Notes: generated by a model not told the origin, from the sequence alone. DNA of 64,000 nucleotides from Longimicrobiales bacterium (GCA_965116905.1 OZ220732.1:1280001-1344000); one strand, 5' to 3'. Counted from the stretch's first letter, positions 16,478 through 19,656 are shown. A program made the numbers and translations.

Positions 16478-16551
<74 letters not shown>

Positions 16552-16710
16552 TACAAGCGACGGAGTGTCTCCGGGAACGCCGCCTCAGCGCGGCGTTTCT
16601 GGCGTAGCGGCCCGGGGTACCGGGACTTGGATCGGCCAGGCCGACCGGTGGTTCCATGCGAACCCGCCGGCAGGGCCCGGTCGGTTTTTGTCGGAGCGAT
16701 GTCGGGCTTC

Positions 16711-16783
16711 GGCCAGGTAGCTCAGTTGGTAGAGCACGCGACTGAAAATCGCGGTGTCGGCGGTTCAATTCCGTCCCTGGCCA
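16711..16783 (+). tRNA. tRNA-Phe (GAA)
   Basis: Cloverleaf, anticodon loop CTGAAAA. Confidence 0.95.
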
Positions 16784-16795
16784 TTGGTTGACGCT

Positions 16796-16869
16796 AGGTC
16801 CGTAGCTCAATTTGGTAGAGCACCGGTCTCCAAAACCGGCGGTTGGGGGTTCGAGTCCCTCCGGGCCTG
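16796..16869 (+). tRNA. tRNA-Trp (CCA)
   Basis: Cloverleaf, loop CTCCAAA, G73. Confidence 0.95.
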
Positions 16870-16885
16870 TAGCCGACGGAGGTTC

Positions 16886-16957
16886 GCCCTCATCGTCTAA
16901 CGGTTAGGACACCACTCTTTCAAGGTGGAGATCGGGGTTCGATTCCCCGTGAGGGTA
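16886..16957 (+). tRNA. tRNA-Glu (TTC)
   Basis: Cloverleaf, loop CTTTCAA. Confidence 0.93.
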
Positions 16958-16993
16958 CTTGGCCGGCGCGGGTTGCCGGCCGCGAGGAAAATT

Positions 16994-17068
16994 GGGGCTG
17001 TAGCTCAGTTTGGTTAGAGTGCCGGTCTGTCACACCGGAGGCCGCGGGTTCGAGTCCCGTCAGCCCCG
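16994..17068 (+). tRNA. tRNA-Asp (GTC)
   Basis: Cloverleaf, loop CTGTCAC, G73. Confidence 0.95.
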
Positions 17069-17107
17069 CTGGCTGGTTTTTGAAAATATGGGTCGTGGAG
17101 CGGGTTT

Positions 17108-17180
17108 GGGGCCGTAGCTCAGTTGGGAGAGCGCCTGAATGGCATTCAGGAGGTCAGGGGTTCGACTCCCCTCGGCTCCA
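17108..17180 (+). tRNA. tRNA-Ala (GGC)
   Basis: Cloverleaf, G3:U70, anticodon GGC. Confidence 0.95.
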
Positions 17181-17203
17181 TTCACCGGATCGATGTGCCG
17201 AAG

Positions 17204-17288
17204 GCTCGGGTGGCGGAATTGGTAGACGCGCAGGATTCAGGATCCTGTGGGGGTTAACCCCGTGAGGGTTCGAGTCCCTCCCCGAGCA
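17204..17288 (+). tRNA. tRNA-Leu (CAG)
   Basis: Long variable arm, loop TTCAGGA. Confidence 0.95.
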
Positions 17289-17319
17289 TTGGCCGGAGCT
17301 GGCAGGCCAGGCTGGGAAC

Positions 17320-17403
17320 GCCCACGTGCTGGAATTGGTAGACAGGCTGGTTTGAGGGACCAGTGTTCGAAAGGACGTACAGGTTCGAGTCCTGTCGTGG
17401 GCA
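17320..17403 (+). tRNA. tRNA-Leu (GAG)
   Basis: Long variable arm, loop TTGAGGG. Confidence 0.95.
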
Positions 17404-17434
17404 CTGAGTTTTTCGGCGATCATCGATTGGCGGA

Positions 17435-17508
17435 GCGCCCGTAGCTCAATTGGATAGAGTACCTGACTACGGATCAGGGGGTTGGGGGTTCGAGTCCTCC
17501 CGGGCGTA
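17435..17508 (+). tRNA. tRNA-Arg (ACG)
   Basis: Cloverleaf, loop CTACGGA. Confidence 0.95.
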
Positions 17509-17516
17509 TTGGTGCA

Positions 17517-17590
17517 GGGCGCGTAGCTCAGCTGGCTAGAGTGCCACGTTGACATCGTGGAGGTCACAGGTTCAAGTCCTGTCGCGCCCA
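17517..17590 (+). tRNA. tRNA-Val (GAC)
   Basis: Cloverleaf, loop TTGACAT. Confidence 0.95.
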
Positions 17591-17620
17591 CTGGCAGTCC
17601 GCGGATGACCCGCGCGAGCA

Positions 17621-17693
17621 GGGGCCGTAGCTCAGTTGGGAGAGCGCAGCGTTCGCAACGCTGAGGTCAGGGGTTCGACTCCCCTCGGCTCCA
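17621..17693 (+). tRNA. tRNA-Ala (CGC)
   Basis: Same body as Ala(GGC), loop TTCGCAA. Confidence 0.95.
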
Positions 17694-17755
17694 CTGGCGA
17701 GGCGGCGACACGGCGGGGCCGCCGGGCCGTCCGCTTGCCGCCCGCCGGAAACATC

Positions 17756-17828
17756 GCCACCGTAGCTCAGCTGGTAGAGCACGTCACTCGTAATGACGGG
17801 GTCGTCGGTTCGAGTCCGACCGGTGGCT
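17756..17828 (+). tRNA. tRNA-Thr (CGT)
   Basis: Cloverleaf, loop CTCGTAA. Confidence 0.95.
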
Positions 17829-17834
17829 CTAGCT

Positions 17835-17907
17835 AGCCCCGTGGTGTAATTGGCAACACGTCTGACTCTGGATCAGAAGAGTCCTGGTTCGAGCCCAGGC
17901 GGGGCTA
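17835..17907 (+). tRNA. tRNA-Gln (CTG)
   Basis: Cloverleaf, loop CTCTGGA; A1-U72 pair. Confidence 0.93.
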
Positions 17908-17910
17908 CTT

Positions 17911-17995
17911 GGAGGGATGGCTGAGCGGCTAAAAGCGGCGCCCTGCTAAGGCGTTGGTCCCAGTGACCACGTGGGTTCGAATCCCACTCCCTCCG
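17911..17995 (+). tRNA. tRNA-Ser (GCT)
   Basis: Long variable arm, loop CTGCTAA, G73. Confidence 0.95.
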
Positions 17996-18127
17996 TGAAC
18001 GGCAGTGAACGGTGGGAGTGGGGTTCGAACTTGTTCGAGCCGGAGGCGGTCGCGCCGCCAGGCGCGAACGCCGGAGACGGCCGAGGACGGCGACAGCCGC
18101 CCACAGGCCCATCCCACTCCCTTTCCA
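17996..18127 (+). repeat. tRNA-Ser-associated ~132-bp element, copy 1
   Basis: Inverted copy of the host tRNA 3' end (18010-18030), conserved core shared with copy 2, direct copy of the tRNA 3' end (18111-18122). Confidence 0.85.
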
Positions 18128-18160
18128 GGAGTGCGGCACACTCGCTCAGACGACCCCCCG

Positions 18161-18245
18161 GGAGGCGTAGTCCTAATTGGTAAGGCACCGCACTCGAAAT
18201 GCGGCGTGCGTCAAGCACTTGGGGGTTCGAGTCCCTCCGCCTCCG
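18161..18245 (+). tRNA. tRNA-Ser (CGA)
   Basis: Long variable arm, loop CTCGAAA, G73. Confidence 0.95.
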
Positions 18246-18263
18246 CTCAGGGAATCTTCAAAA

Positions 18264-18337
18264 CGGGGCGTGGCTCAGTCCGGTAGAGCGCTGCGTTCGG
18301 GTCGCAGAGGTCCCCGGTTCGAATCCGGGCGCCCCGA
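18264..18337 (+). tRNA. tRNA-Pro (CGG)
   Basis: C1-G72, loop TTCGGGT. Confidence 0.95.
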
Positions 18338-18348
18338 TTACCAACCGA

Positions 18349-18432
18349 GGACGGGTGGCCGAGTGGCTTAAGGCGCACGACTGGAAATCGTGTGGGCATC
18401 TGCCCGCGTGGGTTCGAATCCCACCCCGTCCG
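18349..18432 (+). tRNA. tRNA-Ser (GGA)
   Basis: Long variable arm, loop CTGGAAA, G73. Confidence 0.95.
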
Positions 18433-18565
18433 TGAAGCGTCAGCGAACTGACGGGGTGGGGTTCGAACTTGTTCGAGCCGGAGGCGGCCGCGCCGCCAGG
18501 CGCGGGCGCCGGAGACTACCGAGGAGCGGCGGCAGCCGCCCGGAGGTTCATCCCACCCCGTCCGT
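18433..18565 (+). repeat. tRNA-Ser-associated ~132-bp element, copy 2
   Basis: Inverted copy of the host tRNA 3' end (18448-18468), conserved core, perfect 16-bp direct repeat ATCCCACCCCGTCCGT (18550-18565 = 18418-18433). Confidence 0.85.
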
Positions 18566-18576
18566 TGAGCTTCGAC

Positions 18577-19656
18577 ATGACCCCCCAAATCGTTCGCTTC
18601 GCTCCGTTGCTCCTGGGGAACTTGCTGGGTTGGAACAGTGGCGATCCACTAACCCGTCCCGTCATCCCCGGACCTGTTTCCGTAGAGCTCCAGCGTGACA
18701 CGTTGCTGTTGGAGATCGGGGTCATTGCGGGAGACCAGAACCAGGTTTTCGGCAACATCCGTGACGTCGACGTGGATGGGGATGGGAACATCCTGATTCT
18801 TGACGATCAGGACTTCAGTTTGTCCTGGTTTGGACCGGATGGGCGCTTTCGCGGCAGAACCGGACGTGACGGTGGCGGCCCCGGCGAGTTTCGAGCCCCC
18901 GCGGGTTTGGCCGTTAGTCCAGCGGGTCAGATTCACGTTTTGGATGCAGCCTCCCGAAAGGTCGTAGAGTTCGCACTGGGCGAGGAAGGCCTGGAGTTCG
19001 TTCGCAGCTTTCAGGCGCCAGTCCAAGGCAGCGACATGTGCCTTATCGACGGTCGCCTCGTTGTGCTGGGCCAGGCGTCGGATGGCGCACCCAAGGTCTA
19101 CATCCTGTCAGAGGAGGGCGAGGTGATTCGGTCGTTTGGACCAGGCTTTCCGCGCCAGCTACCTCCTCGTGGCCTGGAGAGATTCACAGCTTTTTTTGCC
19201 TCCAGTAATGGACGGGGCTATGTCCACTGCGCAGGAGGGGATGTCCTCGCGGTTGCCAGCGAGCGCCTGGGGATCGTGCGCTGGTTTTCTACACAGGGCG
19301 ACTTCATTCGTGAGGTAACGATCAACGGATTCAGCCCCGTCACGTGGACGCCAAGTCCCGGCGGTGGCCTGTCCATGGGAGTCGACCCGGCAACTGGCGT
19401 TGCCAACACGCTCTCGCACTTGTCAGGTGGAGGACCTGGACAGATCGTCGCCACGATACACACAGCATCAATGGAGGATATGGAGGGGCGTCTCGATATC
19501 TACGTACTCGACCTGGAGGCGGGCGAACAGTCGTCTCCGATCCCATCGGAGGCAGTTGCTTCAGCATTTGCGCACCACCGGCTCTACAGTCTCGTTCGCG
19601 ATCCCTATCCCAAGGTCCTGGTTCAGACAATTCCACAATGGTTGCGGCGACATTGA
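18577..19656 (+). CDS. 6-bladed beta-propeller (NHL-like) secreted protein
   Basis: FGNIRDVDVDGDGNILILD...GRDGGGPGEFRAP motif; visibly lower GC than the backbone. Confidence 0.75.
   Translation: MTPQIVRFAPLLLGNLLGWNSGDPLTRPVIPGPVSVELQRDTLLLEIGVIAGDQNQVFGNIRDVDVDGDGNILILDDQDFSLSWFGPDGRFRGRTGRDGGGPGEFRAPAGLAVSPAGQIHVLDAASRKVVEFALGEEGLEFVRSFQAPVQGSDMCLIDGRLVVLGQASDGAPKVYILSEEGEVIRSFGPGFPRQLPPRGLERFTAFFASSNGRGYVHCAGGDVLAVASERLGIVRWFSTQGDFIREVTINGFSPVTWTPSPGGGLSMGVDPATGVANTLSHLSGGGPGQIVATIHTASMEDMEGRLDIYVLDLEAGEQSSPIPSEAVASAFAHHRLYSLVRDPYPKVLVQTIPQWLRRH

Follow-up and report, generated by a model that had tools for sequence, protein, structure and literature searches.

Two serine tRNA genes of a Longimicrobiales bacterium are each followed by a gene-less repeat of ~130 bases that carries both an inverted and a direct copy of the 3' end of its own host gene, and the reading favored here, with a probability of about one half, is that this repeat is a non-autonomous element that folds as single-stranded DNA (ssDNA) and is moved between tRNA genes by an enzyme acting in trans. 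The element is of the same kind as the tRNA-linked repeats (TLRs) of Escherichia coli, lies outside the E. coli sequence family, and is represented by 67 tRNA-adjacent copies in one genus and by 11 host ends in the family. The window referred to below is the whole stretch of 64,000 nucleotides that was analyzed (C1:1280001-1344000 of the source genome G000, which has 4.2 Mb and 67.7% GC).

Each unit follows the order a-b (the tRNA gene), leader cap, b'-a' (the inverted arm), turn, a, core and b, where a spans G53 to A58 of the host and b runs from A59 to its 3' end (Table 1). The core measures 72-73 nt in the window copies, which are 85% identical to each other and have folding z-scores of -3.9 and -5.4. 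A first-pass annotation had placed both tRNA-Ser genes and both elements at these positions, with inverted arms that match in 19/21 bases and with inverted and direct copies that follow the local host at both bases distinguishing the two hosts, and ARAGORN and the sequence itself agree on all of these points. An inverted-arm match this strong within 40 nt occurred at 0/200,000 random genome positions, and among 51 ARAGORN tRNA/tmRNA calls these two genes alone have one (scores of 33-34, the others at most 16). The direct copy of the tRNA 3' end that had been described is also present in both units, but only the second is complete; the direct repeats are just 12-15 nt long because CCA is not encoded.

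Table 1. Features of the two window copies and of the neighboring tRNA-Ser genes (window coordinates).
Feature	Position	Strand	Remarks
Host gene tRNA-Ser(GCT)	17911..17995	+	T-loop TTCGAAT at 17976-17982; ARAGORN and Rfam
Copy 1 leader, cap between tRNA end and inverted arm	17996..18009	+	GA-AC-GGCA-GT-GA mini-hairpin
Copy 1 inverted arm	18010..18030	+	Reverse complement of host G53 to G73, 19/21
Copy 1 turn (TT) and direct copy of host T-loop 5' part GTTCGA (G53-A58)	18031..18038	+	Folds back onto inverted arm; helix 4 of pair model
Copy 1 structured core, at A58/A59 step	18039..18110	+	Two branches; GNA/GNA and GA/GNA internal loops; tips cGCCAg / cGACAg
Copy 1 direct repeat, host 3' end from A59	18111..18122	+	Truncated, 12 nt
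tRNA-Ser(CGA)	18161..18245	+	T-loop TTCGAGT; without element
Host gene tRNA-Ser(GGA)	18349..18432	+	T-loop TTCGAAT; ARAGORN and Rfam
Copy 2 leader	18433..18447	+	GC-GTCA-GC mini-hairpin
Copy 2 inverted arm	18448..18468	+	19/21 against own host
Copy 2 turn (TT) and direct GTTCGA	18469..18476	+	Sequence
Copy 2 structured core	18477..18549	+	Fold and alignment
Copy 2 direct repeat, host 3' end from A59	18550..18564	+	Complete, 15 nt

Beyond the window copies, which are its only full ones, the source genome has a single remnant, located behind tRNA-Ser(TGA) elsewhere in the chromosome sequence (G000:C1:3079928-3079976, minus strand). This remnant retains the leader, the terminal portion of the core and a complete direct repeat, lacks an inverted arm, and has similar counterparts in G043 and G013. 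The window copies lie in a cluster of 17 tRNA genes (16478-18432), mostly without encoded CCA, whose order is conserved across the genus and family. Elsewhere in this genome, several short copies of its own 3' end stand behind tRNA-Sec (G000:C1:2688507-2688603). A search of Rfam over the element, where a match would have pointed to a described family, returned no passing family on the core and the tRNA alone above cut-off. Matches to miRNA families were sub-threshold and located on the tRNA or the long hairpin, and a match to sX4 (RF02223; 28.6 bits over 18344-18464 against a cut-off of 70) was discarded since the aligned part is tRNA-Ser rather than core; in the phylum 0/61 genomes had sX4 above cut-off, and the matches examined sit on tRNA genes, mostly tRNA-Ser.

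BLAST matches to copy 2 were found in 37/53 genomes of the genus, the named records with the element belong to Gemmatimonadota, Longimicrobiales, and the sequencing runs that contain the stretch are mostly sponge metagenomes. The core pattern was present in 37/401 genomes of the order, all from family f1 (0/71 in f2 and 0/73 in f3), and a covariance model matched 7/150 genomes of the phylum, again all from f1. Within the genus the hosts are tRNA-Ser GCT, GGA and TGA, with both filled and empty sites at each of the three, and 70/103 such genes carry the element, a proportion inflated by the partial selection of loci through element matches. In other genera, units that share the core start and the GAGAC motif stand behind Cys(GCA), Pro(CGG, GGG, TGG), Arg(CCG), Ser(CGA) and, once, Leu(CAA) genes; model R1 recovered homology for four other-genus loci at E 1e-5 to 2e-9 and missed a fifth (L289). 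Different units were seen behind tRNA-Ser in other classes of the phylum (L101:1595-1700, L122 and L128, the last in tandem), in which the T-stem 5' strand is copied in direct orientation and a direct repeat is present, with little or no inverted arm; model R1 scores units of this type weakly (E 0.008-0.9).

Nearly all hosts belong to the class of tRNA genes with a TTCGAAT T-loop, which makes up 13/50 tRNA calls in the source genome. The first-pass annotation had linked the lack of an element at tRNA-Ser(CGA) with a different T-stem; the lack itself holds throughout the genus (0/37 genes examined), but the TTCGAGT T-loop of this gene tracks it better than the T-stem, because in other genera the element is present behind Ser(CGA) genes whose loop reads TTCGAAT. 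The main search patterns were biased toward TTCGAAT hosts, so a counter-biased pattern was run as a check on 260 genomes. It gave 16 matches in 11/260 genomes, of which 5 were chance matches away from tRNAs, 10 were traced to Cys or Pro units with TTCGAAT wherever the host gene was in view, and 1 lay behind a tRNA-Leu(CAA) gene with the T-loop TTCGATT. An absolute TTCGAAT rule was dropped on account of this last host.

The element stands immediately downstream of a tRNA gene except for a few island-displaced copies (L038, L041, L081, L082). A single copy is present at 38/64 loci and more than one core motif within 900 nt at 26/64, with exact tandem units at L034, L036, L061, L067 and L083. Empty sites often retain just the leader; for example, two sequencing runs contain empty Ser(GCT) sites that keep a 12-nt leader, and these sites may derive from other strains. 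Six loci (L004, L005, L009, L035, L075, L078) have, behind the first copy at Ser(GCT) or Ser(TGA), units of a second type whose 5' half is different and which terminate in the same 3' core or in a short direct repeat; these are nested or chimeric units. An element at Ser(GGA) is identical, together with its downstream flank, in two species-level genomes (L035 of G007 and L013 of G016), reflecting either recent transfer or binning contamination. The region after tRNA-Ser(GGA) in the window (18577 to ~23500, also L081, L082 and L038) is a variable cassette region in which two of the three window ORFs scanned encode 6-bladed beta-propellers (PF17170); the order of the cassettes varies among relatives, with element copies at some of their borders. 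A GA-GC-GAA-GC-GA motif resembling the element leader lies at the start of a propeller ORF (18583-18612, minus strand) and is retained in L081 and has a one-base change in L082.

The host-tailored ends extend far beyond the two window loci. Among the 67 tRNA-adjacent genus copies used for counting (after removal of G023, a false positive of the motif, and of 3 copies without a parsed arm), the inverted arm carries the host base at nt 66 in 62/67 (1 swapped, 4 other) and at nt 69 in 62/67 (2 swapped, 3 wobble), and the direct repeat agrees with the host at these positions in 62/63 and 61/63. Co-variation of both ends with the tRNA was found in the genus and in other genera, and the arm also tracks differences between host alleles of a single isoacceptor. 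When 33 elements were compared with 11 host ends, the own host was best or tied in 26; the mean own-host arm match was 7.1/10 versus 4.5 after shuffling (0/10,000 shuffles as high), with the caveat that related copies are not independent. An unusual A at position 53 of a tRNA-Cys host (L314) recurs in both the inverted and the fold-back copy.

The two ends differ in how they match. The direct repeat begins with AT or AAT at the T-loop A58/A59 step in 64/64 cases and has a ragged right edge (-10 to +185), and its first 9 nt are perfect in 58/63, versus 11/67 for the inverted arm. The arm is wholly perfect in 5/67, its mismatches recur at positions 4, 5 and 12, and at position 5, which adjoins a tracked base, a C-A mismatch persists in 45/67. 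Donor-type or unmatched arms occur beside a host-type direct repeat (G145 Ser-GGA, L280, L285, L303). From this exactness of the direct repeat and the imperfect, sometimes donor-type arm, we infer that the target supplies the sequence of the direct repeat, and that the inverted arm comes along with the core and is re-fitted afterward. The option in the first-pass annotation that the element copies its target is thus not borne out as far as a freshly made arm is concerned.

Cores have been exchanged between host tRNA loci. The core distance is 0.148 between different hosts within a genome (32 pairs) versus 0.211 when one host is compared between genomes (479 pairs), and in 727/917 triplets the paralogous core, at another tRNA of the same genome, is closer than the core at the same tRNA in another genome (3 rows left out). 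In one genome (G016) near-identical cores at GCT and GGA have arms that differ toward their respective hosts. A tree of 52 cores (3 rows left out) contains 19 host changes, against a minimum of 2 and a shuffled mean of 25; it is poorly resolved, with 10/48 inner branches starred, and its well-supported branches alone force 3-6 host changes per label. The host label is nevertheless clustered in this tree (3/200 shuffles were as low), so inheritance in place also occurs. The exchange could be insertion or gene conversion, and given this vertical inheritance at the locus, conversion could account for part of the signal. Patchy presence, tandem arrays and repeated host switches fit the first-pass proposal of a non-autonomous tRNA-targeting mini-element, and we infer that the element is mobile between tRNA genes. 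No circle junction was seen among the joints listed from four sequencing runs, most of them on contigs. In five genomes (G014, G018, G021, G063, G065; seen in full in the first three) the 7:66 pair of Ser(GGA) is A-T instead of G-C, as in Ser(GCT), possibly through conversion of the tRNA end tied to element traffic.

The alternative that survives best, possible if on balance doubtful, is a resident repeat without a dedicated enzyme, which would spread by gene conversion through the universally conserved GTTCGA and ATCC flanks, expand by slippage and have its arm corrected by template switching, while a host protein binds the ssDNA fold. The lack of a linked enzyme, the vertical inheritance by locus in part of the core tree, and the leaders left alone at empty sites all agree with such a repeat, and ragged right edges and arrays of 'n plus a fraction' units fit slippage. 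Conversion, however, offers no easy way for an inverted arm to arise in the first place at tRNAs as unrelated as Cys, Pro, Arg and Leu, template switching should also mend position 5 of the arm, where the C-A mismatch is instead common, and the left junction is invariant.

Evidence on the folded form comes from an alignment of 52 copies (G041, G019 and cores outside 70-90 nt excluded), in which a 38-pair model has 96.9% of cells paired, compared with 34-48% in slid controls, and in which 12/38 pairs change on both sides, the covariation analysis having included RNAalifold. In this model the inverted arm pairs with GTTCGA and the direct repeat to give a duplex of host nt 53-73, which is capped at both ends and from which the core bulges at the 58/59 step; the closing stem covaries with the host (pairs 24:141 and 27:138). 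Leader pair 6:16 likewise covaries (GC in 39 and AT in 12 of the 52 copies), and GA/GA flanks surround the leader mini-hairpin in 46/52. On the top strand G-T pairs far outnumber A-C (85 versus 5), which identifies the tRNA-sense strand as the folding strand. Replication orientation is consistent with lagging-strand exposure of this strand, yet is uninformative because most tRNA genes are co-oriented.

The loops of the fold point to DNA. Of 156 hairpin tips, mostly closed by C-G, 93 are GNYA, 21 GNA, 21 GNRA and 21 other, one tip alternates between a three- and a four-base loop, and GNA/GNA and GA/GNA internal loops are present in 48-52 of 52 copies. RNA controls from the same organisms gave GNRA in 6/6 loops of 16S rRNA, 10 GNRA, 2 GNYA and 4 GNA of 16 in 23S rRNA, and GNRA in all 28 parsed loops of the Ser(TGA) variable arm (7/35 unparsed); a purely mechanical hairpin scan of the element gave a weaker contrast (51 GNYA, 43 GNRA, 26 GNA), and all loop and pair counts come from related sequences and are not independent events. 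The 16S and 23S motifs of the source genome lie ~230 kb apart (near 3.00 Mb and 3.23 Mb), an unlinked rRNA operon. Triloop hairpins of the form GCC-GNA-GGC inside the core were considered and dropped, as covariation places the GNA triplets in an internal loop. GNA/GNA internal loops in DNA form sheared-pair zippers. Loops of the d(GNA) type closed by C-G show unusual stability in DNA (PMC3201870), d(cGNNAg) is a selected DNA tetraloop class according to a reference title in the same paper, and GNA loops mark functional ssDNA overhangs in Streptomyces telomeres (PMC5449611). The element loops (cGNAg, cGNYAg, GNA/GNA) follow the rules of DNA rather than those of RNA, and the folded form of the element is probably single-stranded DNA. 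Folding energies do not discriminate between DNA and RNA.

These loops bear on a second alternative, raised in the first-pass annotation as an RNA switch: a co-transcribed RNA module in which the arm pairs with either the tRNA 3' half or the distal repeat and tunes processing, or a small RNA with a tRNA end. The folding strand is indeed the sense strand with G-T pairs dominant, the minimum-energy RNA fold pairs the inverted arm with the tRNA end, the E. coli repeats RrA/B/F are transcribed, processed and bound by Hfq and CsrA (PMC8144298), and in one RNA run, where the raw reads yielded 1 read, contigs of a related strain cover both elements, which cannot show transcription. The element loops nevertheless violate the GNRA rule followed by neighboring true RNA loops and alternate between tri- and tetraloop; presence is patchy, tandem copies number from one to several, some units are truncated and others have been displaced from their tRNAs, and a terminator-like hairpin with a T-run separates tRNA from element at L270 and L273. 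An RNA module is therefore disfavored and seems unlikely.

No enzyme was found that could be tied to the element. The first-pass statement that the window encodes no recombinase is upheld for tyrosine recombinases, and GIY-YIG nucleases are likewise absent (0 matches of each to local profiles among 183 stop-to-stop frames of at least 150 aa); the 12 tyrosine-recombinase matches of the source genome all lie outside the window. Three of the examined loci matched the local tyrosine-recombinase profile and one of these (L041) is beside an element, where the integrase belongs to an island that displaced the copy along with an 11-nt tRNA end. A Y1 HUH transposase was found in 0/53 genus genomes by a search that was positive in 6/14 reference genomes. 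GIY-YIG proteins gave 0 matches in 9,594 frames of the tRNA/element loci, and none of 16 short GIY-YIG loci is near a tRNA or element. A patchy set of ~100-aa GIY-YIG-like proteins ending in GYAVWW or GYGVWQ was noted in the genus, not near tRNAs (L345-L352, L356, L359, L360).

A third alternative, somewhat less probable than an RNA module, would make the element the shrunken remnant of an integrase-carrying island that underwent internal deletion, its direct repeat being an ordinary attR. It draws on the role of tRNA-Ser(GGA) as a hot spot for islands, with gene cassettes that vary, and on copies that lie 2.5 kb (L082) and 7 kb (L081) from the tRNA at cassette borders. The longer copies with an integrase or transposase that such an origin implies, and that the first-pass annotation had thought worth seeking, did not appear: no form with an integrase or gene between the ends was found in the short flanks of the examined loci, and no full-length element copy in phages, plasmids or IMG/VR. 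The sole integrase island beside a copy displaced that copy (L041), and one integrase fails to explain 11 host ends or the inverted arm. Descent of both copies from one old tRNA-Ser and spacer duplication with passive host matching, which the identical whole T-arms of the two window hosts might suggest and which would have undone the first-pass interpretation, is refuted by the occurrence of the same core, each time with arms proper to its host, behind tRNAs for Cys, Pro, Arg and Leu, along with paralogous cores that are usually closer than orthologous ones, and is extremely improbable.

Known systems share parts of this organization. T-loop/3'-end integrases of islands and prophages duplicate the tRNA 3' end and keep the gene intact, so the 3'-end duplication is common to both, but the element has an extra inverted copy and neither integrase nor cargo, and islands displace it rather than contain it (L041). 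The CTX phage carries two opposed target-like sites, separated by ~90 nt, that form a folded att duplex within one strand, and target-like copies remain after its integration (PMC3089051). The element resembles CTX attP(+)/XerCD and integron attC in having inverted target-like sites able to fold into an att duplex on one strand; the CTX target is dif, whereas that of the element is a tRNA gene with arms differing by host, and CTX and attC use tyrosine recombinases, whereas for the element none was found linked and no circle joint was among those listed. With REP/BIME/REPIN sequences and their RAYT (Y1 HUH) enzymes, and with IS200/IS605, it shares gene-less hairpin DNA, tandem amplification and an ssDNA-type fold, but it is without a Y1 transposase, has a very low copy number, is strictly tRNA-linked and carries target copies. 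The Ssn (SsnA) GIY-YIG single-strand nucleases act on NTS/SRM hairpin repeats (PMC11893778), which the element resembles as a hairpin repeat acted on as ssDNA in the Ssn case; the Ssn system differs in that no short GIY-YIG gene adjoins the element or its tRNAs, and the main text of that paper does not mention tRNA.

The closest precedent is in E. coli, where TLRs have been on record since 1978 without known function and are counted as 22 copies at 10 loci, and where the TLR 3' end repeats 18-19 bp of the 3' end of the upstream gene (PMC8144298). For the units compared in NC_000913.3 (tyrT/tyrV rtT; lys, arg, proK and serX; RrA/B/F), a host-matched inverted arm was found after Tyr, Pro, Lys, Arg and Ser(GGA) genes, with matches of 10/10 for Tyr, 9/10 for Lys and shorter ones at Arg, Ser and Pro. 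The direct repeats start at A58/A59, long units contain a fold-back T-arm copy, cores have GNA/GNNA loops and a GA-RC-GNNA-GY-GA motif, and all five host types have TTCGAAT T-loops; tRNA-Val genes within the same loci have no such unit. The Longimicrobiales element thus shares with these TLRs the position directly behind tRNA genes, tandem arrangement, a direct repeat from A58/A59, a host-matched inverted arm, GNA/GNNA loops and the leader-type motif. It differs in an inverted arm of up to 21 nt (~6-10 nt plus a separate T-arm piece in E. coli), a shorter spacer in the genus of the window, and a shorter direct repeat (12-15 nt in the window against 18-19 bp). The tyrT/tyrV rtT units correspond to Rfam RtT (RF00391), for which no homology was found up to E 10 on 18330-18600 or up to E 1 on 8 divergent loci, and model R1 gave a best E of 0.07 on five E. 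coli TLR loci. The pattern of host-matched inverted ends is real, as the first-pass annotation held, but it has a precedent of the same layout. A preprint describes elevated coverage at tyrT/rttR, with signals from RNA genes ascribed to RNA/DNA hybrids (bioRxiv 10.1101/2024.07.17.603846). No account of the TLR inverted arm or of an ssDNA role was found in the literature covered, and Rudd 1999 or Egan and Landy 1978 may mention the arm.

A folded-ssDNA element moved in trans would work as follows. The tRNA-sense strand, exposed either in lagging-strand synthesis, as the template, or when the tRNA is transcribed, as the non-template strand, would fold into a dumbbell that rebuilds the duplex of the host tRNA 3' end, and a site-specific enzyme would act at the A58/A59 step of TTCGAAT T-loops. 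Insertion would duplicate the host 3' end, leaving a target-derived direct repeat and an intact tRNA gene, while the inverted arm would travel with the core and later be re-fitted to the new host by selection for the closing stem and/or by template switching across the hairpin of tRNA end and inverted arm. Arrays may then grow or shrink by recombination or slippage between direct repeats. Given the T-loop junction and the folded att-like duplex, the first candidate for the enzyme would be a T-loop tyrosine recombinase that passing phages or islands bring in and that works on the folded strand, by analogy with Xer on CTX. A strict circle swap, which predicts a tRNA end of donor type, was rejected, being contradicted by G145, in which the tRNA end and direct repeat are host-type and the inverted arm is donor-type. 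The lack of an enzyme, the lack of a phage, plasmid or IMG/VR copy, and transcription of the E. coli repeats (PMC8144298) weaken this explanation.

It is tentatively possible that TLRs from E. coli to Gemmatimonadota form a single widespread class of non-autonomous ssDNA elements, with reconstitution of the target as a hairpin-capped duplex, insertion at A58/A59, arm re-fitting and DNA-guided site choice by an unrecognized enzyme. Were this so, the choice of insertion site would be guided by DNA and be protein-free in cis. TLRs have been without an accepted function since 1978, and the present family offers a large natural series with testable rules, namely the folding strand, DNA-type loops, an invariant T-loop junction, a preference for TTCGAAT, a direct repeat derived from the target and an inverted arm that lags behind; E. 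coli K-12, an easy system for experiments, shows these rules too. Should the element be mobile, base-pairing would set the target and the enzyme could become a retargetable integration tool; if it is not, the family would still represent an ssDNA structure selected beside tRNA genes.
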